From a phage, in the NCBI GenBank assembly GCA_028030915.1, contig GCA_028030915.1_4867.1: 64,000 bases of DNA. The stretch is one strand, 5' to 3'. The notes beneath the pieces were generated by a model. That model was not told where the DNA came from. It did no database searches and saw only the letters and a program-made list of their open reading frames with translations. Each line of letters starts with the position of its first letter. Position 1 is the stretch's first letter. Shown piece after piece: positions 7,866 to 56,560 of this stretch. A program made the translations under genes and the position numbers.

Positions 7866-7910
7866 CAGTACCCACTCCCCCTACGGGAGTGGGTAGGCTT
7901 TATTTTATTT
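7866..7910. terminator. bidirectional intrinsic terminator (CCCACTCCC...GGGAGTGGG stem, T-run after, A-run before)
   Basis: Perfect inverted repeat between convergent genes 7102..7857 (+) and 7920..8462 (-). Confidence 0.6.
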
Positions 7911-7919
7911 CGGACCGAT

Positions 7920-8462
7920 TTAGAATTTACTAATAGCGAGTGGCTGCATTGGCTCAATCACAATCAGTATTTCTTTCAGACGTGAAACGATATGCTCCCA
8001 GACCTGTGCTTCGAGGTGACGTAGCATGGTGGTGAACTCACCCATGTACATCTCTTTATACTCGTCGCGGTTGAGATGTTCCCACGCTTCTTTCAATGGG
8101 CCTGCTTCCGGTCCAGACATCTTAATCATCATTTCGATGTCCTTCATTTCATCAAAGGCTTTACCGACCTTATCAATAACCTCATCGGTCTTGAGTTCGA
8201 GTGAGAAGCGACCCATCTTAGACTGCAGGAAGCCGTCTTCAATGTCTTCGTCGTTGTATTCGAAACACGCAATACGTTGCGCGAGTTGATGAACTTCATT
8301 TACCGCGATATTGACATACGCTGCAGAGATAAGCCCAGCGAGGTGTTGACGATCGATATTCTTCGGTATCAGATAGTCTTCACACTTACGCTTAAACTCG
8401 AACAACGCCGCTGGAAATATTTCACGAAATTCGTCATCGAGTAAATCAATGAATATTTTCAT
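7920..8462 (-). CDS. hypothetical acidic protein (180 aa)
   Basis: ORF in track; 4-nt overlap with upstream gene. Confidence 0.45.
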   Translation of the reverse strand: MKIFIDLLDDEFREIFPAALFEFKRKCEDYLIPKNIDRQHLAGLISAAYVNIAVNEVHQLAQRIACFEYNDEDIEDGFLQSKMGRFSLELKTDEVIDKVGKAFDEMKDIEMMIKMSGPEAGPLKEAWEHLNRDEYKEMYMGEFTTMLRHLEAQVWEHIVSRLKEILIVIEPMQPLAISKF

Positions 8463-8998
8463 TCAATAGGTTTCCCGTATTTCTCACCGAGGTATAACAA
8501 CTCACGGCGACAGATAGCCAGCACTTTCATTTCTGCTTCACGATACAATTTGGTGATTTTGTCAATGATTGGCTGGTCAACGATATCGGACCATGTTACC
8601 GTGTCCGTAACGTTCGACGTTTGCCCGTTAATGACCACAGCAACATATGTCTCGCCCAGGTTCTCTTGATGTAACCCCGCCAGAGATTCACCAACCTTAT
8701 CAAAGGCTTCACTCAATAAGTCGGTGATTTGGTCCGTCCCTTCTACCAGTTCAAAACGATGGGGATAGTTCAGAATGTTACGCAGCCGCGTGAACATACG
8801 TTCAATAAGCTGATTTACCATATCCCCAGTGTCACAGATAGCCACATCTACGCCTGAACCCATTTCGTCAGACAAACGATTTTCATGGACGGCCAACGCA
8901 TCGTGAAGTTCAAATTCCACGTCTCGTTTTAATCCTAACAGAATTTCATCTAGCTGACGTCTCGACTCCGACAGAGCGAAGTCAATTACGATTTGCAT
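8459..8998 (-). CDS. hypothetical protein (179 aa)
   Basis: ORF in track. Confidence 0.45.
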   Translation of the reverse strand: MQIVIDFALSESRRQLDEILLGLKRDVEFELHDALAVHENRLSDEMGSGVDVAICDTGDMVNQLIERMFTRLRNILNYPHRFELVEGTDQITDLLSEAFDKVGESLAGLHQENLGETYVAVVINGQTSNVTDTVTWSDIVDQPIIDKITKLYREAEMKVLAICRRELLYLGEKYGKPIE

Positions 8999-9008
8999 CT
9001 AATGCTCC

Positions 9009-9416
9009 TTAAAAGTTACTTACCTCGGGCTGCGTATACCAGTATCTGCACGCTACGAGATCCACAACGTTATATTTCAGTTGTCCACCGTGCTGTGACG
9101 TGTCTGCCAATTCATGCGCAAGCTTGTACGCCAAGTCTTCACGGTTGTCGAGGATAAGCAACACAACACGCTGCACCTCATTAAAGATATCCGGTTCACG
9201 TAAACAACTGTAGCGCTCGCTAAGATGCTTAATAACGCCTTTATAAACATCTCCTGGTACAGCAGTGCCATTTTCTGCTACGTGGAATGAAACAAGCACG
9301 ATTTTAATTAAAATCTCGACAACCATGGAGTATATCATTCCACGGTTGCCGTTAATTTCCACATGCTTTAGATACTCTTGCAAGTCCATCAATGACTCGC
9401 TATACACCTTTAACAT
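9009..9416 (-). CDS. hypothetical protein (start moved to internal Met with GAGGTG RBS)
   Basis: The track ORF 9009..9482 overlaps the upstream gene; the Met at 9416 has an RBS and removes the overlap. Confidence 0.4.
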   Translation of the reverse strand: MLKVYSESLMDLQEYLKHVEINGNRGMIYSMVVEILIKIVLVSFHVAENGTAVPGDVYKGVIKHLSERYSCLREPDIFNEVQRVVLLILDNREDLAYKLAHELADTSQHGGQLKYNVVDLVACRYWYTQPEVSNF

Positions 9417-9427
9417 AGCGACCACCT

Positions 9428-9805
9428 CTAGTTGGTTGCCGGCCACACCCCTGGCGATGGGATTGCATCGTATCCACGCCATTTCTTAATCACGACAAGG
9501 TTCGAGCCTGGAAGACCATCTAAATCAAAACCAACAGTAGCAACGACATCAACTTCAGCATCCAGCGATACCTGATCGCGACCCTGTGTTCTGAAATGCG
9601 CAAGAGACACCAGTTTACCGCCAGTAATCGCAGTATCGCGAATAAGACGTGCCATATTGCGCATCTCTACTGTCACTTCTCCACGAATAGCGACACTCAG
9701 CGTTGCTTTATTTAACCAGGCTTCTTGTCCCGGTTCGACAATATAGAGAATCACACCTTCTTTGTAATACTGTTTTACCATCGTTTCAAATTCGTCTTGC
9801 GTCAT
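9428..9805 (-). CDS. hypothetical protein (125 aa)
   Basis: ORF in track. Confidence 0.4.
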   Translation of the reverse strand: MTQDEFETMVKQYYKEGVILYIVEPGQEAWLNKATLSVAIRGEVTVEMRNMARLIRDTAITGGKLVSLAHFRTQGRDQVSLDAEVDVVATVGFDLDGLPGSNLVVIKKWRGYDAIPSPGVWPATN

Positions 9806-9818
9806 TTTAAATACTCCT

Positions 9819-10553
9819 TCAGTAGTTTATTTTCTCAGCGACTTCTTTACGGATGCGACACATCACCACCATCGCACCATTCGGAATTTGGCTCACGCAG
9901 TTATCCGTGTAAAACTTACCTTCACACAGATAAAAGTCCAGACACATGGCATCGGTCAGCTCGTGCCACAGGGTGCCGAAACCATACTGCCAAGGGCCGG
10001 AATGAACGACATCGTAATCGCCATCAGTTATGCCAAATGCGGCAGTAGCGGAAGACCACAGTATTGAGGAAGTGGTATAAGTGTCATACCAGTAACCGAG
10101 CAGACGATGGTTACGACGTATCTCAGCTAACCGCTCGTACATTGGGATGAATACATCTTCCACCTGCGTGACAAAATCAGCCAGCATCAACTTTTCCGTG
10201 AACCACTCGATCCACGCAAAGATTTGTTCTTCAACGTCTTGTTGGCTTAACCCCGTGGCAGTAATGCCTTCTTCGTAGGTGTAACCTTCGTAGACGTCAA
10301 CAACATTAATCTCTACATGTTCTAGCGTGAACAACCGTTCGGTGTTGATGCAGTCGTACATCTCTTGTAACCACGCAGTGAAGACTTCTATACAGACGTT
10401 GATGGCTGTGTACTTGAATTCATCGCGCAGTGGATACCACTGTGGGTTATCCTTTAGTTCGTTCTTCGCGAACGCGGGCCAATGCTTTTCGAACAACGCT
10501 TCAAAGAACTGGGGCGTGAGGTTTAAAAGCACTGGCACTTCGACTTTAAGCAT
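9819..10553 (-). CDS. hypothetical protein (244 aa)
   Basis: ORF in track. Confidence 0.45.
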   Translation of the reverse strand: MLKVEVPVLLNLTPQFFEALFEKHWPAFAKNELKDNPQWYPLRDEFKYTAINVCIEVFTAWLQEMYDCINTERLFTLEHVEINVVDVYEGYTYEEGITATGLSQQDVEEQIFAWIEWFTEKLMLADFVTQVEDVFIPMYERLAEIRRNHRLLGYWYDTYTTSSILWSSATAAFGITDGDYDVVHSGPWQYGFGTLWHELTDAMCLDFYLCEGKFYTDNCVSQIPNGAMVVMCRIRKEVAEKINY

Positions 10554-10606
10554 CGTGAATAAATTCTCCTTAAGGTTACGTCCCTGTAGATAATATCTAT
10601 CTCAGA

Positions 10607-11347
10607 TTACTTTAAGAGATGCAAGAAGCGTGCTGCCTGTTCTGTAAAGTGAAAATACTCGATGGTATCAGGTTCGTCCGAGTGAATGTCATCCGGGTCC
10701 AGCAGGTAGCCCGAGATATCATCCGTTAAAACCCAAGCGTCTCCCTGCAGGAAAATACCCATCGGTTTTTCTACCACGGGCATCACCAAGTCGGAATAAG
10801 AGTTACCTTCTGCAACCTTTACAATGTCTTCACACGGGTCAACAATATACAGGTTGCAGAGACTACGATCTTTAAGACTGCGATGAAACATCGCTCGATC
10901 GTACCAAATAACCTGAGAACAATTATCTTCGTCACCCGCCACATCGACCAACTCTGTCCAGAAACGATGTAAGAACCAGTTCAACGCACCGGTTATTAGC
11001 TCGTTCGGTTTCAGCATTCTAACGTGTTCGTCGTACAACTCTTCCATTGTCCAGATTCGACAATGCTCACGATCGATTGTCGGTAGCGGAGGTATTTGCG
11101 GCGGGACTTGTTTAGGCATCGGTTCATCACATCTTGCGTTGTAACGCGCAATTGTTTCGGTAACCAGCTCTGCCACAACATCACAAGCCGCTTCAAATCC
11201 CCACTTGTACAACACGTCGTAATCTTCCATGGGCGCAGCACCAAACTCACGGTTCGTTGCCATCCACGACATCCATCCGTATTGCTCCACACAGTTAATC
11301 AGACTTTGTGTGTGGAGCGTGAGCGATTCACTCACGACTCGCAACAT
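10607..11347 (-). CDS. hypothetical protein (start set at the internal Met adjacent to the upstream stop)
   Basis: The track ORF 10607..11407 would overlap the RNase H gene by about 60 nt; the Met at 11347 abuts the RNase H stop. Confidence 0.4.
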   Translation of the reverse strand: MLRVVSESLTLHTQSLINCVEQYGWMSWMATNREFGAAPMEDYDVLYKWGFEAACDVVAELVTETIARYNARCDEPMPKQVPPQIPPLPTIDREHCRIWTMEELYDEHVRMLKPNELITGALNWFLHRFWTELVDVAGDEDNCSQVIWYDRAMFHRSLKDRSLCNLYIVDPCEDIVKVAEGNSYSDLVMPVVEKPMGIFLQGDAWVLTDDISGYLLDPDDIHSDEPDTIEYFHFTEQAARFLHLLK

Positions 11348-11348
11348 G

Positions 11349-12863
11349 TTACACCTCTTCTTCTCGCAGTATGCGACGGTTTGCGTAATACGCACACCAC
11401 AACCCATGATACTCTTTACCGATATAGATTAAGAAGTAACGGATGTAGTATTTTTCAGGACGACACACCGCGATGTAATAACGGCCTTCGGGTTCTTTAA
11501 TACGGTTGATTTCCGTACGCGATGGAATATCGATACCACGCGTCAAAATAACCGAGACAGGTCGTTTACCCATCGGAAAGTCAATCTTTAACGTTATTGA
11601 CTTATCGACGCTACGGTAGTATTCCTTAACAGGCTTACCTTTGTCATCGAACAACAAGTCAGTAATATCATTTAAGACATAACCCTTTTCCTGATGCAGA
11701 ACATCTCTCAACGTTGTAGCGAGTTCGTCACGAATATCCAGCGCACGGTACGACAATAAGGGCGGGCGAAGCATTCTGGAGATGGCCAGGTCTTCAAAGA
11801 ACCAGACATTGGAATCTTCTCCACTGAAATGCATCTTGTCTGCCGGTAATCCATCACCTGCCACGTCAACGAACTTCTTACGTTTAACGAACTCATTGTT
11901 AACAACACCGATTGGATCATACTGCCGCATCTTCGGTGTATCTTTCCATGCCAGGGCGGCGTGGTTGTTTACAATCGTGTAGATGTTATCCCACGGTTGT
12001 TTAGTGAACATTACGGAAAAGTGTGCATCAGGAATCATTTTCCCAATAAACACCAAGTCGTCCTTGTTCTTTGCATGGTTGCCACCAAACATGTAATAGA
12101 AAGTTTCATCTTTCACTTTTACAGTAGGATGGTCCTCGTTCACCAACGGATAGCAATATTTAACCGTACAAATCGGCGGATATGCCGCAAGGTTCATCCC
12201 AGCGGCGATGGGCTCGGGTTCCGCGGATGCAGGCAACTCATCCTTCGACCAGTACGGCTGATATGGAACGCCGTCGTTGGTCGCTGTGATGGCTGAACCT
12301 TTTCTAGCCAATTCGTCCGCCCGGTCGTTACCGTAGTGGCCGGAGTGTCCTTTGATTTTGATAACCTTAACACCCCGTCCTTCTTTTTTCATCTGCTGTT
12401 TGATTTCCCAGATACGAACAATAAGTTCTTTGTTCGCCAGCGGAGTACCGTCAGCACGAACCCAACCACGTTTATGCCAGCCGTCTATCCACTCGTTAAA
12501 AGTGTTTACAACGTAACTGGCATCCACGTAGATGATATAGTTCTTCGCGCGGAAGGGCGCGTTCTCAAACAACGTGATGAAGGCGATTAACTCGCCCACA
12601 TCTGAGTAGAACTCTTTCGGAACGGGAATAACGGCGTCGACAAATTGAACGGTGTCCGGCAACTCCGGACAATTCACATCCTGCGGCACTTTTTTGTATC
12701 CAACAGTGGTAATCCGTTCTGAAACACCCGGATGGCTATAAGCCTGACTGTCTTCCAAATCTCCGTTGTTGAATAAATAACCATGAATACCAGCCCCCGA
12801 ACCTTTCGGGGACTCAGTATGACTACCATCGGTATAAATAACCGCTACGTCGACGTCTTTCAT
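11349..12863 (-). CDS. RNase HI (RnhA-type) N-terminal domain fused to an unknown ~300-aa C-terminal domain
   Basis: N-terminus IYTDGS, then YVDASYV...WHKRGW...IKGHSGHYGNDRADELAR, matching the E. coli RNase HI pattern (FTDGSC...STDSQYV...WKKRGW...VKGHAGHPENERCDELAR). Confidence 0.8.
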   Translation of the reverse strand: MKDVDVAVIYTDGSHTESPKGSGAGIHGYLFNNGDLEDSQAYSHPGVSERITTVGYKKVPQDVNCPELPDTVQFVDAVIPVPKEFYSDVGELIAFITLFENAPFRAKNYIIYVDASYVVNTFNEWIDGWHKRGWVRADGTPLANKELIVRIWEIKQQMKKEGRGVKVIKIKGHSGHYGNDRADELARKGSAITATNDGVPYQPYWSKDELPASAEPEPIAAGMNLAAYPPICTVKYCYPLVNEDHPTVKVKDETFYYMFGGNHAKNKDDLVFIGKMIPDAHFSVMFTKQPWDNIYTIVNNHAALAWKDTPKMRQYDPIGVVNNEFVKRKKFVDVAGDGLPADKMHFSGEDSNVWFFEDLAISRMLRPPLLSYRALDIRDELATTLRDVLHQEKGYVLNDITDLLFDDKGKPVKEYYRSVDKSITLKIDFPMGKRPVSVILTRGIDIPSRTEINRIKEPEGRYYIAVCRPEKYYIRYFLIYIGKEYHGLWCAYYANRRILREEEV

Positions 12864-13582
12864 TATTCTCCTCGCAACTGCGGTGGAATGTATTCACCTG
12901 TGCACATTTCGCGGTGGGCTTCTAACATGCGTTCGAAGCCGTACGTACGCGCGACCAGGGCCAAATGATAGATGCGTGCCGTAGAATACGCTTCCTTCGC
13001 AGCATCAAAGCTAGCGTTATGCTCGTACGCTTCTTTGCCACGGGTCCAATGGTGCGCTTCTGCGTGCCAGTTCGGTTCCAGGCCAAACGCATATGCAATA
13101 CGTTCTGCAGTCCGGTCAGAGTCCAATATAGAAAACTTGCGGTACTTGCCCGGCGGGATATCGCACTGCGCGAATGCGTTCATCAGAATTGGAGCATCGA
13201 AATCGGGACCGCGCATGGTGATAACCATTTTCACGTTGCCCAGATCATCCAACCATTTTTTGGCCGCCCACAGTGCTTCTGGCAGTGGAGTGGTCCCAGA
13301 AAACGCTTCAATACGTGCTTTCTCGCTCGGTGCGTATTCGGGGTCGCCTTTACCTTCCCAATAACCGACCGTTTGTGGATCGATGTAGAAGATTTCTTTT
13401 GCTTTTGCATCATTGGGGTCGATTTTGTGGTAACATGAACCGATCATTTTCATTGTCGGAACATCGAATGCCACGTTTGCCAACGTTAAGATGTAGGCAT
13501 CTGGACGTAAAGCCAGGGTCTCTAAGTCCGTCCCAACAACAACGGTGGGCGTTAAAACAGGCAGAATTTTAGGATATGTCAT
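12863..13582 (-). CDS. putative DEDD-family 3'-5' exonuclease (239 aa)
   Basis: VVVGTDLET (Exo I-like D-x-E) and HNASFDA (Exo II/III-like); start codon overlaps the RNase H gene boundary. Confidence 0.5.
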   Translation of the reverse strand: MTYPKILPVLTPTVVVGTDLETLALRPDAYILTLANVAFDVPTMKMIGSCYHKIDPNDAKAKEIFYIDPQTVGYWEGKGDPEYAPSEKARIEAFSGTTPLPEALWAAKKWLDDLGNVKMVITMRGPDFDAPILMNAFAQCDIPPGKYRKFSILDSDRTAERIAYAFGLEPNWHAEAHHWTRGKEAYEHNASFDAAKEAYSTARIYHLALVARTYGFERMLEAHREMCTGEYIPPQLRGE

Positions 13583-13627
13583 TTCAACTCTCCACGAGAT
13601 TATATATCACACTATTGACTATTAACG

Positions 13628-13666
13628 TAAAAAAAGGAAATCCCCTCTTACCCGAAGGTAAGAGGG
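13628..13666 (-). terminator. intrinsic terminator (CCTCTTACC-CGAA-GGTAAGAGG, U-tract on minus strand)
   Basis: Hairpin with GNRA-like loop preceded on the plus strand by an A-run; downstream of the 13672..14151 gene. Confidence 0.45.
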
Positions 13667-13671
13667 AGTTT

Positions 13672-14151
13672 TCATTGCACAAGGCAACTACTTTTGTGCC
13701 GTTCGTAGGCATGATTAAAAGACTCTCTGTCTTCGCGATAGCTGCGAATGAGAGACTTAATCTGTCGTGACAAATCACGACTAATGTCCTGAGGGCTACG
13801 AGAACCAGGGTCGAGATATATCCCGGAGGGTATATCATGAAGAGTGGGGCGAATAAACTCTTCACAAAGCGGTGCGGCCATCGGGGTGCGCCACCCCTTA
13901 GCTTCTGCGTAATTGTTCAACGACTTAGCGTACAGATAAACGTAATAAGCATAAGCGTTCACATCCGCAACAAACATTTTCCCTGCCAACTTTTTCGCCT
14001 CAGGACTGTTCCCACCAGCATAAACTGGTGGGTGTTCTAAAGGACGAAAAGGCCAATCTCCGGTTGAGGAGTAATCTGGGTCTACGTGACGGACGGCTCC
14101 AGGACATCCTGTCAACAATAGCACCAGTATCGCCACCAAAAATAACTTCAT
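13672..14151 (-). CDS. putative lipoprotein (159 aa), lipobox LLTGC
   Basis: N-terminal hydrophobic segment ending LLTGC; located immediately downstream of a membrane-anchored Pro-rich protein. Confidence 0.5.
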   Translation of the reverse strand: MKLFLVAILVLLLTGCPGAVRHVDPDYSSTGDWPFRPLEHPPVYAGGNSPEAKKLAGKMFVADVNAYAYYVYLYAKSLNNYAEAKGWRTPMAAPLCEEFIRPTLHDIPSGIYLDPGSRSPQDISRDLSRQIKSLIRSYREDRESFNHAYERHKSSCLVQ

Positions 14152-14160
14152 GTATGCTCC

Positions 14161-14676
14161 TCATGGATTATTAAGCGTACTGATAATCTCCTGTCGGAAA
14201 TCATTTGCCTCCTGCGACCCTACCGGGCGAGAAGCGGCCTGGTATTTCTTGGCAGGTGGGCTAGACGGATTTAACGGTGCCGGCGGTGTTACCGGCTTGA
14301 GTTCTACAGGCGGAACCGCGGCCTCAGTGCCTGTTCCTGTTGGAGATTTGGTACCATCATATGGCGGTCGAGAACCCAGGCACGTGAAGAGACGATCGTA
14401 CAACTTATTGTTCTCCACTTCGCTATGATCGGACTTCTCTTTTAGCTCCTTATAGGATATCTCCAGATACTGAGTACGCGATTGAACGCTAACCAGTGTG
14501 TGGTATTGAACAATGTAGGCGTATGAGACAAATGCAGAGAACGCGATCAGTGCCACTATCACTAGTGTCACTATTTTCCCGGCTCGTGTTACTTTCTCCC
14601 CCTCGCCCGGTTTAAATGCTTCCCACAGCATTTGTAAGAATGGAAGCAGTTTGAAAACTGATGCTATCATGCTCAC
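14161..14676 (-). CDS. membrane-anchored protein with Pro-rich linker (spanin-like or TonB/TolA-like)
   Basis: Single N-terminal TM segment (IVTLVIVALIAFSAFVSYAYIV), short charged helical region, Pro-rich stretch PVELKPVTPPAPLNPSSPP. Confidence 0.45.
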   Translation of the reverse strand: MSMIASVFKLLPFLQMLWEAFKPGEGEKVTRAGKIVTLVIVALIAFSAFVSYAYIVQYHTLVSVQSRTQYLEISYKELKEKSDHSEVENNKLYDRLFTCLGSRPPYDGTKSPTGTGTEAAVPPVELKPVTPPAPLNPSSPPAKKYQAASRPVGSQEANDFRQEIISTLNNP

Positions 14677-14694
14677 CTCGGAGAGTTTTTAATT

Positions 14695-16074: not shown

Positions 16075-16084
16075 GGAGGGTTAA

Positions 16085-16708
16085 ATGGCACAACTGTTGC
16101 CTAACACGCCTCAGGTTAACCTTGAGGGGTTGTTCAAGGTTAAGGCACCTTATACGTTGCCAGATAAAGTGATTTACCGTGTTGACGCGGTACAGAACTT
16201 TCCGAAACTCCAACGTAATAATATTGACGTTTATAACAAGTATTATAAACCTGTCGGCCTAACTCGTGACGACTATATCAGCGACGCTAATGTCGAAGCC
16301 TCGATTGTAACATTAAAGTCGAGGGACGGTCAAGTCTACGAGTTGCCTGATACGTACATTGAGACGTATCCTGGACTGAACGGGTTAAATTATAGACGCA
16401 ATGTGGTGGTTATTGACCTGGCATTAATACCCGAATACGTCGATGTCACACTGCTAACGAACGACCTGAAAAGCATCTTAGAACGCGGTTTAGGAATCGA
16501 TGCACGTGTGGACATCACATCGATGGATTACGAAGGGACGGTGACGGAAGAAGAACACTTGCAAATGGAAGCGGTGCGTAAAGCCAAAATCCGTGAGCAG
16601 GTTCCTCTGACAGAACAAGTTGCAACACTCACTAAGCAGAATCAAGAACTGCAGGCGTTGAATGATGCGATGTTGAAAATCCTGAAAGATAACGGGTTAA
16701 CAAATTAA
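16085..16708 (+). CDS. hypothetical protein (207 aa) with C-terminal helical/coiled-coil-like segment
   Basis: AAGGAGGG RBS immediately upstream; C-terminal LTEQVATLTKQNQELQALNDAMLKILKDNG. Confidence 0.55.
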   Translation: MAQLLPNTPQVNLEGLFKVKAPYTLPDKVIYRVDAVQNFPKLQRNNIDVYNKYYKPVGLTRDDYISDANVEASIVTLKSRDGQVYELPDTYIETYPGLNGLNYRRNVVVIDLALIPEYVDVTLLTNDLKSILERGLGIDARVDITSMDYEGTVTEEEHLQMEAVRKAKIREQVPLTEQVATLTKQNQELQALNDAMLKILKDNGLTN

Positions 16709-16720
16709 AGAAAAAAAGAA

Positions 16721-16760
16721 CTACCTACTCCCTTGGGAGTAGGTAGGCTTTTATTTTTTA
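16721..16760. terminator. bidirectional intrinsic terminator (CTACCTACTCCC...GGGAGTAGGTAGG, flanked by A-run and T-run)
   Basis: Inverted repeat between convergent genes 16085..16708 (+) and 16766..17923 (-). Confidence 0.6.
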
Positions 16761-16765
16761 TCGCA

Positions 16766-17923: not shown

Positions 17924-17959
17924 TGGTATTTTCAGATGATTAGTTACTGCTGTAAAAAA

Positions 17960-33658: not shown

Positions 33659-33865
33659 GTTATTTACGTGTGTGGGGTATAATGTGACAATAAACCCCTA
33701 ACTGTAACGATAACCCGAATCGCTTGTGCACAGTTAGCCACTTTTTTCGCACAAAAGCCGGTTTATTGTCAACTAATTTACGAGTCGGGGCAGTTAATAT
33801 GCCTCGAAGTACAAGTAGTTGAACATAGGGTTCTTCTGCTATCATTTGTTAATGGAGATAAGTAA

Positions 33866-34075: not shown

Positions 34076-34100
34076 TCGGCCTGCGGGCAAAAAAGATATA

Positions 34101-34146
34101 GGTACCCTACTCCCGTTGGGAGTAGGGTTTACCTTTTATTTTTTTC
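34101..34146. terminator. bidirectional intrinsic terminator (CCCTACTCCC-GTT-GGGAGTAGGG, then T-run)
   Basis: Inverted repeat between convergent genes 33866..34075 (+) and 34136..35398 (-). Confidence 0.6.
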
Positions 34147-39179: not shown

Positions 39180-39191
39180 GGAGATTTTTGA

Positions 39192-43322: not shown

Positions 43323-43357
43323 GACGGACTGCCTACGGGCGGGTAGTCCGTAGGTAA

Positions 43358-43397
43358 ACCGCCCTTCCGTTATTGGGAGGGCGGTCTCCGTTTTATT
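43358..43397 (+). terminator. intrinsic terminator/attenuator between fiber genes (ACCGCCCT...AGGGCGGT, then T-run)
   Basis: Inverted repeat followed by CTCCGTTTTATT; preceded by a second hairpin at about 43323-43354. Confidence 0.45.
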
Positions 43398-43417
43398 ACA
43401 GATTAGGAGTGTTTGCA

Positions 43418-48601: not shown

Positions 48602-48648
48602 CAGATAGCGCTATGGGGCAAGGAAGCCCCAATCAAAGGAGTTTGGCA

Positions 48649-49851: not shown

Positions 49852-49860
49852 CTTGTTTAC

Positions 49861-49905
49861 GAGCCGGACTATGTTTATGGACATAGTCCGCTCGTTCTAC
49901 TTTTT
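49861..49905 (+). terminator. intrinsic terminator/attenuator (CGGACTATGT...ACATAGTCCG, then T-run)
   Basis: 10-bp inverted repeat followed by CTACTTTTT, between the last fiber gene and the Cys-rich peptide genes. Confidence 0.45.
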
Positions 49906-49916
49906 AAGGAAGCGTA

Positions 49917-50309
49917 ATGGCGATATCTATTAAAGACGTCAGAAACCGCGTCCAGATAGTCGAAGCTAACATGGCGACAGGCCCCCGCATCGAGGCGCAA
50001 GTGGCCTCTAAAGCCCATAATGCGGCAGACCGATTTGGGGGTTGGACGAAAGCACAGCTAGATTGCGGCGGGACATGTTCTTGGACATGCTCTAACGGTT
50101 GCTCGCACGGCTGTTCGAGCTGTTCAGGAAGCTGTTCTGCTTCTTGTATCGGTAGCTGTTCTTCGACGTGTGGCGGTAACTGTTCTGGTTGCTCTGGTTG
50201 TTCTGGTGGTTGCAGTAGTAGCTGTACCGGTAACTGCACAGGTGGTTGCGGTGGCTCATGTTCTTCCAGTTGTTCCGGGGCCTGCTCCGGCGGCTGTTCA
50301 GGTCGCTAA
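49917..50309 (+). CDS. Cys-rich repeat protein A (130 aa): ~49-aa leader-like N-terminus plus a CxxxC repeat tail with about 21 Cys; candidate RiPP precursor
   Basis: ATG with AAGGA RBS; N-terminus MAISIKDVRNRV is paralogous to the next two ORFs; tail DCGGTCSWTCSNGCSHGCSSCSGSC...CSGACSGGCSGR. Confidence 0.6.
   Translation: MAISIKDVRNRVQIVEANMATGPRIEAQVASKAHNAADRFGGWTKAQLDCGGTCSWTCSNGCSHGCSSCSGSCSASCIGSCSSTCGGNCSGCSGCSGGCSSSCTGNCTGGCGGSCSSSCSGACSGGCSGR
50064..50306 (+). repeat. in-frame period-12-nt coding repeat (Cys-Ser/Gly-x-x) within protein A
   Basis: Reiterated TGC/TGT-containing units (e.g. tgttctggttgctctggttgttctggtggttgc); both alternative frames are also open, as expected for a low-complexity repeat. 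Confidence 0.6.
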
Positions 50310-50319
50310 GGGGGATTAA

Positions 50320-50724
50320 ATGGCAATTGGATTAAAAGAACTGAATAACCGATTAAACACGATCGATGCAAACGCTCTAAAGAATACCACGAATGTGCAA
50401 AACTACATTCGCAATAAAGCTACGAATAACGCTGACTTGTTCGCAGGTCAAGGTCGTTCGCACTACGACTGTGGTGGTACGTGTTCTTTTAGCTGCTCAA
50501 GTTGCTCTGGCGGCTGCACAGGATCTGCGACAGGTGGTTGTGGGTCGACTTGTTCGGCAAACTGTGTATCAGGCTGTAGCAGCAGCTGCACGGGCTGTAG
50601 CTCTTCGTGCTCTGGTGGTTGTAGCGGCACGTGCACAGGCAGCTGTTCTGGGGGTTGTGGTAAATCCTGCTCCGCAAACTGCTCAGGTGCGTGCTCTGGT
50701 GGTTGTTCAGGTCCTAACTCCTAA
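50320..50724 (+). CDS. Cys-rich repeat protein B (134 aa): leader-like N-terminus plus a CxxxC repeat tail with about 20 Cys; candidate RiPP precursor
   Basis: ATG with GGGGGA RBS; MAIGLKELNNRL leader paralogous to A; tail begins YDCGGTCSFSC and ends CSGACSGGCSGPNS. Confidence 0.6.
   Translation: MAIGLKELNNRLNTIDANALKNTTNVQNYIRNKATNNADLFAGQGRSHYDCGGTCSFSCSSCSGGCTGSATGGCGSTCSANCVSGCSSSCTGCSSSCSGGCSGTCTGSCSGGCGKSCSANCSGACSGGCSGPNS
50470..50721 (+). repeat. in-frame period-12-nt coding repeat (Cys-Ser/Gly-x-x) within protein B
   Basis: Same repeat style as in A; alternative frames open. Confidence 0.6.
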
Positions 50725-50739
50725 CTGACGGAGGCTTAT

Positions 50740-50946
50740 GTGATCAGTCTCAAGACTATTCGAAACCGTCTCGTTACGGCAGAAGGTTACATTACAACCG
50801 CACAGGCAAACAACTATATCGCTAACCAGGGCACCGTGTCGACCACAAATAACCTGGCTGGCTTACCGCTTTCTCACTATAACTGTAATGGTGGGTGTAG
50901 CTGGTCCTGCAGCGGAAGCTGTAGCCGTGGAGCGGGGAATCGATAA
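50740..50946 (+). CDS. Cys-rich short paralog C (68 aa, GTG start): leader-like N-terminus plus a short CNGGCSWSCSGSCS core
   Basis: GGAGG RBS 5 nt before GTG; MISLKTIRNRL leader matches A and B; core starts YNCNGGCSW, like the start of the A and B cores. Confidence 0.5.
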   Translation: MISLKTIRNRLVTAEGYITTAQANNYIANQGTVSTTNNLAGLPLSHYNCNGGCSWSCSGSCSRGAGNR

Positions 50947-50968
50947 CAGAAAACGTTCGGAGTATTAA

Positions 50969-51856
50969 ATGAAAAACGATTTGCATCTTGCGTATAAAAC
51001 CACATTCAACCACCCGCTGCATCTATCTTCCCCAGATTCAGTGCGTGCACACCTTGCTGACAAAGTCAGACTGATTGCACAGATTCCTGGTGAGTGGCCA
51101 AAGGTTCGTGGTCGCTTCTTGACCGACAAGAAGAACTACACCGTAGAAAATACGTTTAAGATCCGTGATATGGTTGCAGAGGCCATCGTTATCTTTAACG
51201 GCGATGGTAACTCTCGTGGCGTGTTAGTCGACGGTAAGTATTTCTTCAGTGAAGGGATTTTGAACAACAGCGTCGATTTAGAACTGATGTTTACACCGTT
51301 TGACGAACTTGAAGCAAAACCGATGGCGCGCCGTTGGTGGAGTCCGGACTATCTGGGCTCGTTCCCTTACTACTTTGTACTGGTACCTGCCGATACGGAA
51401 ACGTATTTCGACACCGAACCATACATCGATATCGAGGGGTATAAAGAACTCGGCATCACCCGTTTAGCGGACATGATGGCGTATAGCTATAAGTTCGTGT
51501 GGGATAAAAAGCGTTCTGTCTGGTATGCACTGACTGACGATTTCGAAATCACCAAACGTATTCGTAAACCGTGGATGCAACATCTGGTTCAAACCCGATA
51601 TGGGGATTATCCGGCGACGGAAGCGGATTTGAGTAAGCTGGTAAGTTTCCTCTTAACGAAGGTGGATTTAACGAAAGAAGAAGCAGAAGCTGTTTCTGAG
51701 ATTCGTGGTCGTTCGGTAACGTTGGCCGATTTGAAACGCCTGAACGAAAGACACGCCGACCTGAACAAAATTTTAGCTGCCTATCACGACCCGATGTTAC
51801 TGGTGCCCGGCGCTAATGTAGACGAAGATCCTTTATTCGCCATTGATTATATTTAA
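50969..51856 (+). CDS. hypothetical protein (295 aa) within the Cys-peptide/radical-SAM cluster
   Basis: GGAG RBS; no recognised motif; lies between the precursors and the rSAM genes. Confidence 0.5.
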   Translation: MKNDLHLAYKTTFNHPLHLSSPDSVRAHLADKVRLIAQIPGEWPKVRGRFLTDKKNYTVENTFKIRDMVAEAIVIFNGDGNSRGVLVDGKYFFSEGILNNSVDLELMFTPFDELEAKPMARRWWSPDYLGSFPYYFVLVPADTETYFDTEPYIDIEGYKELGITRLADMMAYSYKFVWDKKRSVWYALTDDFEITKRIRKPWMQHLVQTRYGDYPATEADLSKLVSFLLTKVDLTKEEAEAVSEIRGRSVTLADLKRLNERHADLNKILAAYHDPMLLVPGANVDEDPLFAIDYI

Positions 51857-51878
51857 AAATATACTGGAGCAACCTGCA

Positions 51879-52793
51879 ATGACAGATCAAGTAGAATCCA
51901 GGATCTCGTCTGAACTGTACGACAAACCGTCAATTCTGTCGGTTGTCGCAACTTCTAAGTGTAACTTAGACTGTAGCTTCTGTGGAGGGGCTTATTACAT
52001 GGATAGAGAAGATACTTCTCGTGAGTTTCAACGTGAAGAGATTCTCTCGATTTTAGAGAAGAATCCGGATATCGGTGAGATTCATTGGACGGGCGGTGAG
52101 CCGCTGTTAGCGCAGCGCAAGATTGAAGACTTCGTGAACGAGTTGAAGGAGTCTCATCCGAACCTCCGTCATCACATGTACACCAACGGTTTAAAGATGC
52201 GTAAATCACATCTGCCGTTGCTGAAACAGTTCGACCTTATCTTTGTGTCCATTGACGGCTACAAGAAGTCGGAACGTCCGTTTATGAACTTTGTAAACGG
52301 TGGTAATCATGAAGCGCTGGAAGTGCTGTACGAGCTGGACAACTATTACACCTGGGGTGTGATGACGCGTGACCAGTTAGGTGATAAACGCTGGTACGAA
52401 GATTTCATCGAGCTGCACCGAGCAATCTATCATTACCGTCCAGGTGGGATGTCGTTGCTGTTTGATGCGATGATGCCGAAACCGTTATCGCCAGACCACG
52501 TCATGAACTTCATGTACGGGTATTGGAAAATACTCGACAATATCGAACGCCTTAACATGCAGAACGATTCTGAATGTGGGCTTGCGATCAGTAAAATGTT
52601 CGATACCGAGTGCAACACGTGCAGTGAAGTTCTGTGGCTTAACGCCGACGGTACGCAGGAGCAAATTCAGAACGCCCCAGAGATATTGGAAGTCGGCTGT
52701 AATCGCCTGGCGCGTTCTATCGGCGTTGATGCGTATAACTACATCAACCGTGTAATTTCTGCTAAGCGTAAACGGGCGGCGAACAATGAGTAA
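51879..52793 (+). CDS. radical SAM enzyme (about 305 aa) with short Cys-containing C-terminal extension
   Basis: CNLDCSFC (C-x3-C-x2-C) near the N-terminus, WTGGEPLL, YTNG, SIDG; C-terminal ECGLAISKMFDTECNTCSEV...GC; GGAG RBS before the ATG at 51879 (the track ORF starts at an upstream TTG). Confidence 0.7.
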   Translation: MTDQVESRISSELYDKPSILSVVATSKCNLDCSFCGGAYYMDREDTSREFQREEILSILEKNPDIGEIHWTGGEPLLAQRKIEDFVNELKESHPNLRHHMYTNGLKMRKSHLPLLKQFDLIFVSIDGYKKSERPFMNFVNGGNHEALEVLYELDNYYTWGVMTRDQLGDKRWYEDFIELHRAIYHYRPGGMSLLFDAMMPKPLSPDHVMNFMYGYWKILDNIERLNMQNDSECGLAISKMFDTECNTCSEVLWLNADGTQEQIQNAPEILEVGCNRLARSIGVDAYNYINRVISAKRKRAANNE

Positions 52794-54114
52794 CAGCGAA
52801 CAGCAAATCCAGTACACACCACGCACATATCAGGTCGTGACTAACTTGTCATGTAACCTGGACTGCGAATACTGCTACGAGCGTAAATACCCACGCAACA
52901 ACAAAGTAGCTGACGTGATTGATTTTATCCACGCTTGCTTCGAGCGTGATAAAGATATCCCGAACGTTGAAGTCATCATCGATATCATCGGTGGTGAGCC
53001 GTTCATGCAGCCTAAACTTCTTTTGGCGGCCTTTGAAACCGCAGAGAAGTTATGTGCAGAACACAATCGCCCGTATATGTTCAGTATCTCCACGAACGGT
53101 ACGCTTCTGGACCGTCCGCTGAACAAAGAAATTATCGAGCGCTGGAAAGACAAACTGTCTATTGGGGTCTCCATCGATGGTTTACCTGAAATCCATGACA
53201 AATATCGTATCTTTACCACGACGCGTGAAGGGTCGTACGAAGCTGCGGTACGCGGTTACAATTACCTGAAGAGTGTTGGCATCGCTGAGCTGGGCGTAAA
53301 GGCGACGTTTACGATCGATACATTGCCGCACTATGCCGCCAGCATGAAATCGTTAATTGACATGTCCGGCGGTGGTACCATTTCTGGTAACGTAACGTAC
53401 GAAGATATCCTGCCGCGCCATATGGCGTTGGATATCGCGAACCAGATGATGGACGTGATGGACTACTGGATTGAGAAGGGTCTGCACACCAACCCGCGTA
53501 ACACGATTACGCACATCATCCCGGATGGCCTGAACTTTATGGCAACTTGGGACCCGGATTGGCGTGACAAACTCTTACATGACGACTCTGTTCGTCTCGA
53601 CCCAGAACGCCTGAAACCGTACTGCGGTACGTTGACGCACATGACCTGTCTCGGCTTTGATCGCAAGATTTACGGTTGTAACCGTTTCATGTCCACGGTA
53701 ACTTCCCGTTCTGCTGTAGCAGAACTGGTCGGTCGTGAGTTTGTGAGCCTGGACGGTGGTAAGCTGTTAGAAGAGATTCAAACGCAGTACACCAACTACC
53801 CAGAAACCTGTTTAGGGTGTCCGATGAAACACAGCTGCGGTAGCTGCGCAGCAGCATCGTACGAAAACGGTGAAGGTACACTGGAAGACCGTAAAGCGTA
53901 TCACGCCGAGCGTCGTCAGTGTGGTTGGACTACTGCGAAGCTGATGGCGGCGGAATATTGGTATCAGAAAACTGGTACGACCCGCGCATCAGATTTGCAC
54001 GATAAATCCATGTGCTATTGTTCACGTTGTGTACGCCAACGTGCTGAAGCAGAAAAATTACAAAACGGAGCCCAGAATGAAGTCAATACTGATTCACAAT
54101 TTTACGAAGCGTAA
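52786..54114 (+). CDS. radical SAM enzyme with SPASM-like Cys-rich C-terminal domain (442 aa)
   Basis: CNLDCEYC (C-x3-C-x2-C), GGEPF, STNG, SIDG; C-terminal cysteine cluster CGTLTHMTCLGFDRKIYGCNRF...CLGCPMKHSCGSCAAASY; start overlaps the upstream rSAM stop by 8 nt. Confidence 0.75.
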   Translation: MSNSEQQIQYTPRTYQVVTNLSCNLDCEYCYERKYPRNNKVADVIDFIHACFERDKDIPNVEVIIDIIGGEPFMQPKLLLAAFETAEKLCAEHNRPYMFSISTNGTLLDRPLNKEIIERWKDKLSIGVSIDGLPEIHDKYRIFTTTREGSYEAAVRGYNYLKSVGIAELGVKATFTIDTLPHYAASMKSLIDMSGGGTISGNVTYEDILPRHMALDIANQMMDVMDYWIEKGLHTNPRNTITHIIPDGLNFMATWDPDWRDKLLHDDSVRLDPERLKPYCGTLTHMTCLGFDRKIYGCNRFMSTVTSRSAVAELVGREFVSLDGGKLLEEIQTQYTNYPETCLGCPMKHSCGSCAAASYENGEGTLEDRKAYHAERRQCGWTTAKLMAAEYWYQKTGTTRASDLHDKSMCYCSRCVRQRAEAEKLQNGAQNEVNTDSQFYEA

Positions 54115-54643
54115 ACTGCACTTGGTCGATCGCTTCCTGCGCAAAAGCAAGCTGTACAATGTGCACGCAATTGTGGCAGGGGAAGACTTCACTGATGAAA
54201 TCCAAAGCCTGTTGATTAAATACGGGCTGAATGTGATGATCCCGGTCTACTGCGTTGAGAAAGGACACGAGTCTGTCGCGGAAATCGAAAAGCGCAACCC
54301 TGGCTTTGAGAAGCGACTGCTTGCATACCCACGCCACAAAATCGAACTGCTACGACACTCTATTGATGAAGCCAGTCCTGAAAGTTTAGTGGCATTGGGC
54401 TTGTCTTTCCCGCGGATGCGTATTCGTAACTTACGCTCCAATAACCCGGTTGACGCTTATTACACAGAGCGTCAAATCTTCGAAGAACACCTGCTCCCGC
54501 AGTTGGAAGAAGAAGAGCAACACAACATTTCTCTGTTGTGGGCCGGTAACCTCGATCAGGACTTCCAGATGCTGGACTTCGGTTTGTTGTTAGAACTTGG
54601 CCTGATTGAGGAGGACGAATGTCTGTTACTGACAAAAGCTTAA
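54077..54643 (+). CDS. hypothetical protein (188 aa from the internal Met with GGAG RBS)
   Basis: The track ORF starts at 54029 inside the rSAM gene; the Met at 54077 has an RBS but still overlaps the rSAM 3' end by 38 nt. Confidence 0.4.
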   Translation: MKSILIHNFTKRKLHLVDRFLRKSKLYNVHAIVAGEDFTDEIQSLLIKYGLNVMIPVYCVEKGHESVAEIEKRNPGFEKRLLAYPRHKIELLRHSIDEASPESLVALGLSFPRMRIRNLRSNNPVDAYYTERQIFEEHLLPQLEEEEQHNISLLWAGNLDQDFQMLDFGLLLELGLIEEDECLLLTKA

Positions 54644-55290
54644 CGAACGAAGAGATCCGCGCCCGTTATTTCCAGCGTGATTTGCCGATTGATCGTCACG
54701 GTAATTTCATGGAACGAATCGGTGCGCAGGATCAGGGCCGTACCGGATTTTGTGCATTACTCCATTACCATCTCATCGAAGGGATGTCTGATAAAGAAGC
54801 CCTGGCACGCATGAAGCTGTATGAGATGTCGGAGATTGAAGCTAACTTCACATTGAAACGCACGAAAGAGTTTATTGCTAATGTGCTGGAGATTGACCTC
54901 GACGAAATTCGCGGGAATCTGAAATCTACCGCACGTTACATTTACGAAGACGTGCAGAAGATGCTGTTGGAACTCGACCACCGCTACGAAGATGAGCGCC
55001 ATGGTTATATCGAGTTTGAAGGTAGTCACTTTCAAGCCGATGAATCGTCGCGTACCATCCTCGGTCAATACATTCAGGCAGATACCGCACCAGAATACTG
55101 GCTCGATACGCTGAATACTAAGCACAGTCCGTTTACAGTAGCCCAATGTAAAGCGTTGCTGGCCGCTATTGTTGCACGTGACCAAGTGTTGCACTCAGCA
55201 ATGGCAGATAACAAACGCCAAATCCGTGAGTTAGCTGAAAAGCGCGATTACACTGGATTAAAAACATTGTCCGAGTCACTCGGCATGTAA
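54619..55290 (+). CDS. hypothetical protein (223 aa), last gene of the cluster
   Basis: ORF overlapping the previous gene by 25 nt; followed by a strong terminator. Confidence 0.5.
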   Translation: MSVTDKSLTNEEIRARYFQRDLPIDRHGNFMERIGAQDQGRTGFCALLHYHLIEGMSDKEALARMKLYEMSEIEANFTLKRTKEFIANVLEIDLDEIRGNLKSTARYIYEDVQKMLLELDHRYEDERHGYIEFEGSHFQADESSRTILGQYIQADTAPEYWLDTLNTKHSPFTVAQCKALLAAIVARDQVLHSAMADNKRQIRELAEKRDYTGLKTLSESLGM

Positions 55291-55302
55291 GCAAAGAAAA
55301 TA

Positions 55303-55348
55303 AAGGCCCTACCTCCCCGAAGGGAGGTAGGTACCTTTTATTTATTTC
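55303..55348. terminator. bidirectional intrinsic terminator (CCCTACCTCCC-CGAA-GGGAGGTAGG, then T-run)
   Basis: Inverted repeat between convergent genes 54619..55290 (+) and 55372..55899 (-). Confidence 0.6.
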
Positions 55349-55371
55349 TTAGAAACTACTAAGTTGTTTTG

Positions 55372-55899
55372 TTAAACGAATCCGTCCAGTTCACCGTTGG
55401 TGGTGCTCAGGTCAGTTTTAACGATTGGCTGCGTTACAGTATAAACTGCAAGGCTGGCAGGTTGGTATTTAATGTGGCCTTCTTTCACCATAACAGTGAT
55501 GATTTTCTCACCACTGTCGCCGTCCTCGCGTGAAATGGTGAGTTCAGACAATGCAAACGCATCTTCCGTTTTACCGGCGGCAATTAGATCTGCGTTGACA
55601 AAAGCAAGCACTTCTTCATCGGTATCCCATTCTGCCTGGTCAGCGGTAACTGCTTTCGCACCGATGATGTTCAATGAATCGAGGCGGGTGTAATGCAGCT
55701 CTTTCTCGCCAGTAAAGTTAGCGGATTCCGCGGTGGCAGTGATGGTGAGTTTGGAGTTGCGAGTGTCTCCAGAATCTGCTGGTGAATAGTCAGCAACAGC
55801 GCCGAATGTAACGTCAGCAGTAGTTAACGGACTAGACAGTCCGCTGTTTGCAGCATTAAACAGCGCGACGAGTTGGTCTTTTGCAGAGATGACTGCCAT
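55372..55899 (-). CDS. hypothetical protein (175 aa), Thr/Ala-rich, possibly virion-associated
   Basis: ORF in track. Confidence 0.45.
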   Translation of the reverse strand: MAVISAKDQLVALFNAANSGLSSPLTTADVTFGAVADYSPADSGDTRNSKLTITATAESANFTGEKELHYTRLDSLNIIGAKAVTADQAEWDTDEEVLAFVNADLIAAGKTEDAFALSELTISREDGDSGEKIITVMVKEGHIKYQPASLAVYTVTQPIVKTDLSTTNGELDGFV

Positions 55900-56022
55900 G
55901 GTTGTTTCCTTATAGTAGGTTTGTGGTGCATACTAAATCGTTCTAAAAACAACATAGTGGGCTTAATATGACAGTAAAGTTGGCTGTTAAACGAGAAAGT
56001 TTTTACCACTGAAAGGTACTCT

Positions 56023-56514
56023 ATGAAACGTCTATTTATCGTATTCGCGATTATAAACCTGTTGGCCGGTTGTGTTCAGTCGCCAAGCAACATAGGACAA
56101 TTTAGCGCCACACCAGTAAAGAATCACGACTTGGTGATTTATACATGCACAGGGACGCAGGAGAAGTTTGTAGACTACCGTCCGGTACTGGACAACCTAC
56201 AAATGATGCCGCGGTCAGTAACAGTAATGGATGTGGGTGCAAACTGGGTAGCAGCGTGGGACGGTGGCAAACTAGAGTCACCGATGATGTTTAAAGATAC
56301 AATTGGCAAAATCGACGGGAATGTTAATACCACCACAGGTGAGCGTTATTACCGTATTAATAAAACCGTAAACGATAGCCCCACTTACTCTTTTTCGGAT
56401 GTGAACCCGTATACCGGCGAAGGTAAAGGGATGACATTCTTTCGCTGCAGCAGCGGGTTTATCGGTGAAGTTCCTACTCCGATTACGATTGTTCCGTTAG
56501 AAGAAAATAAATAA
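56023..56514 (+). CDS. putative lipoprotein (163 aa), lipobox LLAGC
   Basis: N-terminal MKRLFIVFAIINLLAGC; own terminator downstream. Confidence 0.55.
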   Translation: MKRLFIVFAIINLLAGCVQSPSNIGQFSATPVKNHDLVIYTCTGTQEKFVDYRPVLDNLQMMPRSVTVMDVGANWVAAWDGGKLESPMMFKDTIGKIDGNVNTTTGERYYRINKTVNDSPTYSFSDVNPYTGEGKGMTFFRCSSGFIGEVPTPITIVPLEENK

Positions 56515-56517
56515 TGC

Positions 56518-56560
56518 TTACCCACTCCCGTAAGGGGAGTGGGTAAGGGCTTTATTTACC
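56518..56560 (+). terminator. intrinsic terminator (CTTACCCACTCCC-GTAAG-GGGAGTGGGTAAG, then T-run)
   Basis: 13-bp inverted repeat after the lipoprotein gene. Confidence 0.6.

Follow-up and report, generated by a model that had tools for sequence, protein, structure and literature searches.

Sequence-conserved hairpins as probable bidirectional terminators between convergent genes of an SPN3US-like jumbo phage

In the jumbo phage phiKZ, most of the intrinsic terminators mapped by ONT-cappable-seq share the motif 5′-BCCYCCCCHWWDGGGRRGGBYTTATKYYGT-3′, and six of them are bidirectional and located between convergent genes (Putzeys et al. 2024, PMC10914365). A very similar motif A is described for the phage 201phi2-1, together with 15 bidirectional terminators; the terminators keep their positions with respect to homologous genes, and eight that were tested are able to end transcription in uninfected Pseudomonas (PMC11512511). 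Here we consider a stretch of phage DNA of 64,000 nucleotides (the window; contig GCA_028030915.1_4867.1 of GenBank assembly GCA_028030915.1), in which five hairpins with nearly the same stem sequence occur between positions 7,866 and 56,560. It is likely that these elements are Rho-independent bidirectional terminators between the convergent genes of an SPN3US-like jumbo phage, and that their shared stem is the Seoulvirus/Erskinevirus version of a design common to phiKZ-like (chimalli-type) jumbo phages. The finding is a variant of the known terminator motif of the phiKZ lineage, which extends the 2024 work on phiKZ and 201phi2-1 rather than constituting a discovery.

The likeness to the terminators of phiKZ and 201phi2-1 covers several features. 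The phages belong to the same lineage, which has two multisubunit phage polymerases. The 5′ arm of the hairpin is pyrimidine-rich and ends with (C)TCCC, the purine-rich 3′ arm starts with GGGAG or GGGRR, and TTAT follows the stem. Many copies per genome are alike in sequence and not in the fold alone, and the bidirectional copies lie between convergent genes at positions conserved relative to homologous genes. In contrast to the stems of 7–8 base pairs (bp) in these phages, the stems described here are 10–13 bp long, include an A in their interior and have (C)TACC at the base (TACCYACTCCC), and they are known from the sequence alone. Bacterial bidirectional terminators share with them the perfect G+C-rich palindrome between an A-tract and a T-tract and the short gap between convergent stop codons. 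The difference is that the hairpins considered here form sequence families with G-free 5′ arms and probably serve phage-encoded polymerases. To our knowledge, the sharing of stem sequence across loci has not been described for bacterial terminators.

By megablast, positions 7000–17000 of the window are 99.4% identical to the Salmonella SPFM phages and ~97% identical to SPN3US, a 240-kb jumbo phage of the genus Seoulvirus. Judged by this identity, the window is part of an SPN3US-like jumbo phage of the same genus and the phiKZ-like lineage. It corresponds to the reverse complement of ~131–195 kb of SPN3US, in the record of which several RNA-polymerase beta-type subunit genes are annotated, and the gene names of the window homologues are taken from this annotation. 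The majority of the genes are oriented on the minus strand, and a minority of units, chiefly virion-structural, are on the plus strand.

Convergent junctions and their palindromes

All five hairpins are present at the positions given in the preliminary description, as perfect Watson-Crick palindromes of 10–13 bp (Table 1). Four of the sites have in common the stem TACC(C/T)ACTCCC ... GGGAGT(G/A)GGTA, with an additional C ahead of TAC at site 3, and the stem arms of site 4 are CCTACCTCCC ... GGGAGGTAGG. The preliminary description had assigned the hairpins to the ends of plus-strand or convergent units, which is borne out, as all five lie at convergent junctions. The window has five convergent gene junctions without overlap, formed by the homologues of gp052/053, gp064/065, gp094/095, gp105/106 and gp107/108, and one of the sites is found at each (5/5), 9–29 nucleotides past the plus-strand stop codon. 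An A-rich run is found upstream and a T-rich run of the TTTAT type downstream of each hairpin. A U-rich tract directly follows the stem on both strands at sites 2, 4 and 5 and on the plus strand only at sites 1 and 3, and TTAT, read by eye, occurs in 8/10 tails. At every one of the five sites both strands fold strongly (–21.5 to –29.5 kcal/mol, z –4.6 to –6.5), with values of –26.9 (+) and –26.1 (–) kcal/mol and z ~–6 at site 1. The convergent position, the presence of both an A-tract and a T-tract and the strong fold on both strands are the reasons for which the elements are considered bidirectional terminators.

The proposed mechanism follows from this arrangement. Because a perfect Watson-Crick palindrome is flanked by an A-tract and a T-tract, the converging transcripts of either strand would end in the same hairpin and then in U's. 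The nascent hairpin and the weak rU:dA hybrid would release the polymerase in either direction, and the released enzymes would be the phage's own multisubunit RNA polymerases. The transcribing polymerase of phiKZ-like phages is reportedly phage-encoded, as Ceyssens et al. are said to have described in 2014. Hairpins of this kind would be compact two-way terminators and thus possible genetic parts.

The loops differ between the two classes of terminators. Hairpins with the UUCG tetraloop were reportedly noticed in the intercistronic regions of phage T4 by Tuerk et al. in 1988, and many unidirectional terminators of the SPN3US-type phage likewise have C(UUCG)G loops. The five bidirectional sites, in contrast, mostly have other loops, because UUCG reads CGAA on the opposite strand. 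An Rfam search of the whole window matched no family, including none for the five hairpins, and a literature search on SPN3US terminators returned nothing relevant and no transcript-end data.

Table 1. Hairpin sites with their neighbouring genes, hairpins of related style in the window, and family relatives elsewhere in SPN3US
Feature	Extent	Strand	Hairpin (5′ arm/loop/3′ arm)	Structure and context	Neighbouring genes
Site 1	7845..7911	both	7869-7895, TACCCACTCCC/CCTAC/GGGAGTGGGTA	stem 7869-7879/7885-7895, loop CCTAC, T-tract 7899-7910	gp052 homologue 7102-7857 (+), gp053 homologue 7920-8462 (-)
Site 2	16706..16761	both	16721-16746, CTACCTACTCCC/TT/GGGAGTAGGTAG	stem 16721-16732/16735-16746	gp063-gp064 unit 14695-16708 (+), gp065 homologue 16766-17923 (-)
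Site 3	34088..34146	both	34104-34128, ACCCTACTCCC/GTT/GGGAGTAGGGT	stem 34104-34114/34118-34128	gp093-gp094 unit 32726-34075 (+), gp095 homologue 34136-35398 (-)
Site 4	55291..55348	both	55308-55331, CCTACCTCCC/CGAA/GGGAGGTAGG	stem 55308-55317/55322-55331; loop CGAA (+), UUCG (-)	long plus-strand structural operon, gp096-gp105 homologues 35466-55290; gp106 homologue 55372-55899 (-)
Site 5	56500..56560	both	56517-56547, CTTACCCACTCCC/GTAAG/GGGAGTGGGTAAG	stem 56517-56529/56535-56547	gp107 homologue 56023-56514 (+), gp108 homologue 56640-57155 (-)
Related style, other sub-family	13643..13666	-	CCCTCTTACC/CGAA/GGTAAGAGGG	UUCG loop on minus strand; among three identical SPN3US copies	
Related style	58723..58744	-	CCTCTTCCC/CGTG/GGGAAGAGG	terminator with G-free 5′ arm	
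Related style	43358..43385	+	ACCGCCCTTCC/GTTATT/GGGAGGGCGGT	inside long plus-strand structural operon	
SPN3US family relative	92501		ACCCACTCC		
SPN3US family relative	113924		ACCCTACTCC		
SPN3US family relative	72436		AGCTTACTCCC	after major head gene	
SPN3US family relative	101176		CCCTACCTAAC		

Two minor observations concern the genes at the junctions. The gp094 homologue (33866–34075), upstream of site 3, encodes a DUF1471 protein. The homologues of gp046 and gp047 also converge, with an overlap of ~50 nucleotides (window 3483–3535), and the sole strong plus-strand hairpin after gp046, GGGTGGACTCC..GGGGTTCACCT (3584–3610), lies within the gp047 coding sequence.

Similarity of the stems and its range

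The stems had been described as similar in sequence and not merely in structure, a resemblance that G+C-rich hairpins could in principle acquire by chance. In the window, the motif CCYACYYCCC has 5 matches versus 0.48 expected from dinucleotide shuffles, TACCYACTCCC with at most one mismatch has 10 versus 0.97, and ACTCCC-N2-7-GGGAGT has 4 versus 0.01. The comparison was extended to the full SPN3US genome with a catalogue of 40 strict hairpins, defined by a perfect stem of at least 7 bp, a folding free energy (dG) of –11 or lower and an A- or T-tract. In this catalogue, 10 pairs of 5′ arms have a common 8-mer versus 1.4 expected by arm shuffles. Pairs identical at the 8 loop-proximal stem positions number 6 versus 0.14 under column permutation, and 5 versus 0.44 among the G-free arms alone. 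The excess of stem sharing is likewise present in the Erwinia phage pEa_SNUABM_29. The restriction of the 5′ arms to C, T and A does raise the background, with 76 pairs having a common 5-mer after arm shuffles, but the observed sharing is above every null used, and the exact palindrome is restricted to one lineage. The similarity at the sequence level is therefore real, and genome-wide in SPN3US it is greater than expected for GC-rich hairpins of this composition, contrary to the refuting condition set in the preliminary description. Chance resemblance, which is refuted by the arm-shuffle and column-permutation nulls together with the bacterial-genome count and the viral-database restriction given below, is scarcely credible. 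The stems are kept in sequence and not in structure alone, so that their conservation calls, as had been proposed, for an explanation beyond folding.

The range of the palindrome was examined in bacterial and viral sequences. The strict form has 2 occurrences in 596 Gb of bacterial and archaeal genomes, versus ~0.8 estimated by chance. In IMG/VR, the pattern TACCYACTCCC-N2-7-GGGAGTRGGTA was found in ten stretches, of which three belong to SPN3US, two to Pseudomonas phage EL (identity 100% confirmed) and five to uncultured contigs. The latter are distant relatives of SPN3US by tblastx, with ~21–45% protein identity, or ~80% for contig L059. A shorter pattern of 15 bases has at least 120 matches in IMG/VR at an overall density near chance, and it becomes informative after tblastx classification, comparison with a polarity-flipped control pattern of equal composition and the use of a stricter 22-base pattern. 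Among the 120 matches listed, relatives of SPN3US account for 12 with the real motif and 3 with the flipped control (12/120 versus 3/120), and the full palindromes in such relatives are 11/21 and 1/14, respectively.

The same junctions recur in these distant relatives. At the 3′ end of the gp218 homologue, CTACC(C/T)ACTCC(C) is found in EL, in contigs L023, L262 and L059 and in pEa_SNUABM_29, and the junction has CTACCCTCTCC in SPN3US and CCTACCCTACCTCC in L112. The 11-bp palindrome is also located at the gp011 junction of L052, and related stems occur at the gp185, gp011 and gp222 junctions of other contigs. As far as the sequences in IMG/VR indicate, the exact palindrome is confined to SPN3US, EL and uncultured relatives, often at orthologous junctions. 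Being at chance level in bacterial genomes, it would be a simple signature for the recognition of these phages and of their operon boundaries.

Conservation of the sites and the question of copying

The orthologous sites were compared in pEa_SNUABM_29, which belongs to the genus of SPN3US, in the Erwinia phage phiEaH2 and in Asesino, both of the genus Erskinevirus, and in SPAsTU. The DNA match in pEa_SNUABM_29 has ~72–78% identity in the two regions searched. Hairpins are found at every orthologous junction examined, and there is thus no presence/absence variation. Site 1 has drifted in pEa_SNUABM_29 to CTGCCTACCC, with full compensation, and reads CTACCCACTCC in phiEaH2 and Asesino. At site 2, which is CTACCTACTCC in phiEaH2 and Asesino, the stem and the A-tract are identical to those of the window in both pEa_SNUABM_29 and phiEaH2. 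Site 3 reads CTCCTACTCCCC in pEa_SNUABM_29 and CTCCTACTCCC in phiEaH2 and Asesino, with CTCCTACTCCC(C) as the form in the orthologs of pEa_SNUABM_29 and phiEaH2. The stem of site 4 varies but remains of the G-free style: it is CCTCTCTACC in pEa_SNUABM_29 and SPAsTU and GACCTACTACC in phiEaH2 and Asesino, where the orthologous stem CCTACTACC is also G-free. Site 5 is (A/C)T(T)ACCCACTCC in phiEaH2 and Asesino, and its core TACCCACTCC is unchanged in SPAsTU, pEa_SNUABM_29 and phiEaH2, with one wobble in Asesino; the stem is invariant in five phages, which leaves no scope for covariation at this site. Across the orthologous sites the loops vary freely, and the stem changes are rare and occur by compensated pairs. 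Four of the five sites retain their own stem variant in phiEaH2, three do so in pEa_SNUABM_29, and all five stems stay G-free in both Erwinia phages. Such a pattern indicates that the sites are old and change slowly through compensated substitutions. A slowing of compensatory evolution by two-way use, in which a G.U pair is an A.C mismatch on the other strand, was considered and is not relied on, as the comparison of SPN3US and pEa_SNUABM_29 orthologs by eye gave no clear difference between convergent and co-directional terminators.

This age bears on the suggestion of recent duplication made in the preliminary description. Recent duplication is excluded as the source of the similarity because the sites keep their own variants across genera, and the flanks are unlike between sites. 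A broader version holds that the similarity comes mainly from copying, by terminator duplication or by ectopic gene conversion within the genome. Several pairs of hairpins invite such an explanation. The site 4 hairpin of pEa_SNUABM_29 and SPAsTU, CCTCTCTACC-CTAG-GGTAGAGAGG, matches the gp223/gp222 junction hairpin of SPN3US and pEa_SNUABM_29 at every position including the loop, and site 4 of SPN3US differs from it at three pairs. Three identical hairpins CCCTCTTACC-TTCG-GGTAAGAGGG stand at unrelated co-directional junctions of SPN3US (67345, 94154 and 180981). In SPN3US, the hairpins of sites 1 and 5 have the same sequence throughout, loop included, but opposite orientations, and phiKZ has a similar pair. 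In a scan of 1–50 kb of phiKZ, GCC(C)TCCC/GGGAGGGC stems followed by TTAT were found, and two convergent junctions (25214–25234 and 34917–34937, locus L136) agree in their stem, GCCCTCCC/GGGAGGGC, and have similar flanks and loops that are mutual reverse complements (ATTGC and GCAAT), which is the relation seen between sites 1 and 5 of SPN3US. The identity of loops is nevertheless weak evidence where tetraloops such as TTCG and CTAG are favoured, and the copies have unrelated sequence beyond the hairpin. Four of the five window sites show conservation of their own from genus to genus, and the presence of these stems in EL and the uncultured relatives cannot result from copying inside one genome. 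Copying between loci probably happens now and then, and as the main source of the similarity it is improbable.

The second suggestion was that the hairpins are recombination hotspots or flank mobile cassettes. The model for such elements is the PeSL cassettes of T4-type phages, which combine an early promoter with a stem-loop, border the variable genes of hyperplastic regions and bring about their shuffling (PMC2839356, PMC4122927). Like them, the hairpins considered here recur between the genes of a large lytic phage as regulatory stem-loop motifs conserved in sequence, and gene content varies directly beside sites 1 and 4. An additional open reading frame (ORF) of 924 bp is present beside site 1 in Escherichia phage Lh1B, the match span in phages EC001, SaP7 and JN03 is longer by about the same amount as this insertion, and the number of presumed gp106-like paralogues beside site 4 ranges from one to four. 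However, the Lh1B insertion is bounded on the far side by an unrelated hairpin, with junctions that share TAGAA microhomology only, and the intergenic sequences of the gp106 paralogues carry other hairpins, so that the indels at the two sites do not end in hairpins of the family. The hairpins also differ from PeSL in closing conserved units at orthologous positions: all five are found at such positions in other genera, and the units that they close (the homologues of gp052, gp063–064, gp094, gp105 and gp107) are present in pEa_SNUABM_29 and phiEaH2 and in every relative examined, against the expected variable presence of the flanked units. No conserved flank or promoter module was seen beside the stems apart from the A/T tracts, in an inspection that did not include a scan for phage-specific promoters. 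With the closed units constant and the indel endpoints outside the family, the reading of the hairpins as exchangeable regulatory cassettes is largely refuted and very improbable. A mobile palindrome similar to repetitive extragenic palindromic (REP) sequences or miniature inverted-repeat transposable elements (MITE) was rejected as well, since no orthologous junction examined lacks the hairpin and its count in the 596 Gb of bacterial genomes is that of chance.

Some of the neighbouring sequences merit a separate mention. The Lh1B ORF (locus L137, 1110–2102) is inserted between the T-tract of site 1 and the gp053 stop codon (window 7911–7920) and brings its own unrelated UUCG hairpin; a Pfam scan of this ORF gave no match. 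The gp106 homologue (55372–55899, ~170 amino acids) stands in a tandem row of genes of similar size, which are presumed to be paralogues, with one copy in the window and SPN3US, two in phiEaH2 and Asesino, three in pEa_SNUABM_29 and four in SPAsTU (loci L127–L130). Beside site 5, the ~90 nucleotides from the stop codon of the gp108 homologue to the hairpin (window 56548–56640, minus strand) are conserved in SPAsTU, pEa_SNUABM_29, phiEaH2 and Asesino, with the blocks CATTTATCGTCTTA, CTTAGAGAGCGTTACAG and AGAGGGCAAATAAA, which are kept even without gp108. The segment has two compensated pairs and a positive covariation term, and although this structural support is weak, it could be an element of the 3′ untranslated region or a small RNA ending in the terminator.

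Terminator style and its possible reasons

The stems of the five sites belong to a wider style of the genome. In the 5′ arms of the 40 SPN3US terminators, the ratio of C to G is 180:58 and none is C-free. G-free 5′ arms are found in 17/40 of these and in 16/44 terminators of pEa_SNUABM_29, versus 0/35 comparable hairpins from 1 Mb of unrelated viral contigs (Fisher p=3e-6), and within SPN3US they are commoner at convergent junctions (10/13 versus 7/27, p=0.005). The word TACC, to which GGTA corresponds in the 3′ arm, is located at the base of the stem or adjoining the loop and is present in 17/40 SPN3US 5′ arms versus 3.2 expected and in 17/44 of those in pEa_SNUABM_29 versus ~3 expected from composition. 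TTAT occurs in 27/46 SPN3US terminator tails versus 19.7 expected (p=0.01). The family relatives outside the window in SPN3US (Table 1) lie at co-directional junctions and have UUCG loops, and most of the remaining convergent junctions have stems of a sister sub-family, CCTCTC.... Most of the other terminators of the window had been characterized as unrelated stems with CGAA loops. They are terminators of minus-strand genes with UUCG loops, and two of them (13643–13666 and 58723–58744) have the same style with a G-free 5′ arm.

The proposed explanation is that selection for this design leaves fewer stems that can be used, so that separate terminators would become nearly identical. In the design, the 5′ arm contains C, T, few A and no G, usually starting with (C)TACC and ending with CTCC(C), and the purine-rich 3′ arm starts with GGGAG and is followed by a tail of the TTTAT type. 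The candidate reasons for such a design are fast unambiguous folding, a preference of the phage polymerase and protection of the 3′ end. The first of these is plausible, as arms composed of pyrimidines alone and purines alone would not fold on themselves or pair out of register, and the hairpin would form quickly and in a single way. A preference of the phage polymerase, or binding by a phage protein, is a possible but unlikely cause of the G-free 5′ arm and of the favoured pairs CTCCC/GGGAG and TACC/GGTA.

A number of observations weigh against the combined interpretation of the sites as bidirectional terminators of a lineage-wide design. At sites 1 and 3, the stem and the U-run of the minus strand are separated by a spacer of 6–7 nucleotides, and the minus-strand U-tract of site 3 is also weaker. 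Termination at the five sites is inferred from their anatomy. Even when up to 3 mismatches are allowed, the literal 30-nucleotide phiKZ consensus has 0 matches in the window, owing to the greater length of the SPN3US-type stems and to their A and TACC base; the link to phiKZ is thus, on the sequences compared, one of style and not of identical sequence. Purine-rich 5′ arms, of the opposite polarity, occur in 6/40 SPN3US terminator-like hairpins, and the polarity is therefore a preference and not a rule. Finally, the clustering of identical stems exceeds the null of position-specific composition, so that the design constraint alone may not suffice.

The last point leads to the rival explanation in which the stem is a sequence-specific recognition element, with a conserved phage component reading the TACCYACTCCC/GGGAGTRGGTA hairpin. 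This component could be the phage RNA polymerase itself, a factor for termination or antitermination, an RNA-binding protein, or a nuclease by which the 3′ ends of the mRNA are set or protected. Identical stems recur above position-specific composition; the exact 11-bp stems are confined to the lineage and persist where homologous proteins match at ~23–40% (tblastx), and the stem of site 5 is invariant across two genera while its loop is variable. Other features fit poorly with one rigid site, as TACC stands at the base in TACCCACTCC and at the loop in CCCTCTTACC. The six SPN3US hairpins of opposite polarity also count against recognition, as do the terminators of 201phi2-1, for which the host polymerase of uninfected cells is sufficient (PMC11512511). 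Recognition of the stem is on balance unlikely, although slightly more probable than copying. Somewhat less probable than recognition in general is the specific form in which the partitioned stem, confined to phiKZ-like jumbo phages and kept at the same junctions from SPN3US to EL, may be a sequence-specific signal for a conserved phage component, with a termination signal of the multisubunit phage polymerases and a tag for an RNA-binding protein in 3′-end protection or in the handling of mRNA ends at the phage nucleus as the candidates. The constraint on terminators is commonly assumed to act on structure only, and a fixed stem across a family of giant phages would point to an unrecognised requirement of the transcription or RNA-handling machinery. 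The preferred interpretation remains that of two-way terminators shaped by a design common to the lineage.

Two further observations relate to single stems of this style. The variant CCTCCTTACC..GGTAAGGAGG, found in pEa_SNUABM_29 and in contig L090, is the same as the 16S rRNA 3′ end in pairing with a perfect Shine-Dalgarno (SD) sequence. A general SD/anti-SD relation, which was considered for the 3′ arms with GGAG or TAAGGAGG and for this one 5′-arm variant, was set aside: the hairpins are ~50–85 nucleotides from the next start codon, and the resemblance is taken as a by-product of the partitioning of purines and pyrimidines between the arms. The hairpin at 43358–43385 contains a T.G pair and forms its full stem in the plus-strand RNA only, unlike the palindromes of the convergent junctions, and its stem GCCCTTCC/GGGAGGGC resembles those of phiKZ.

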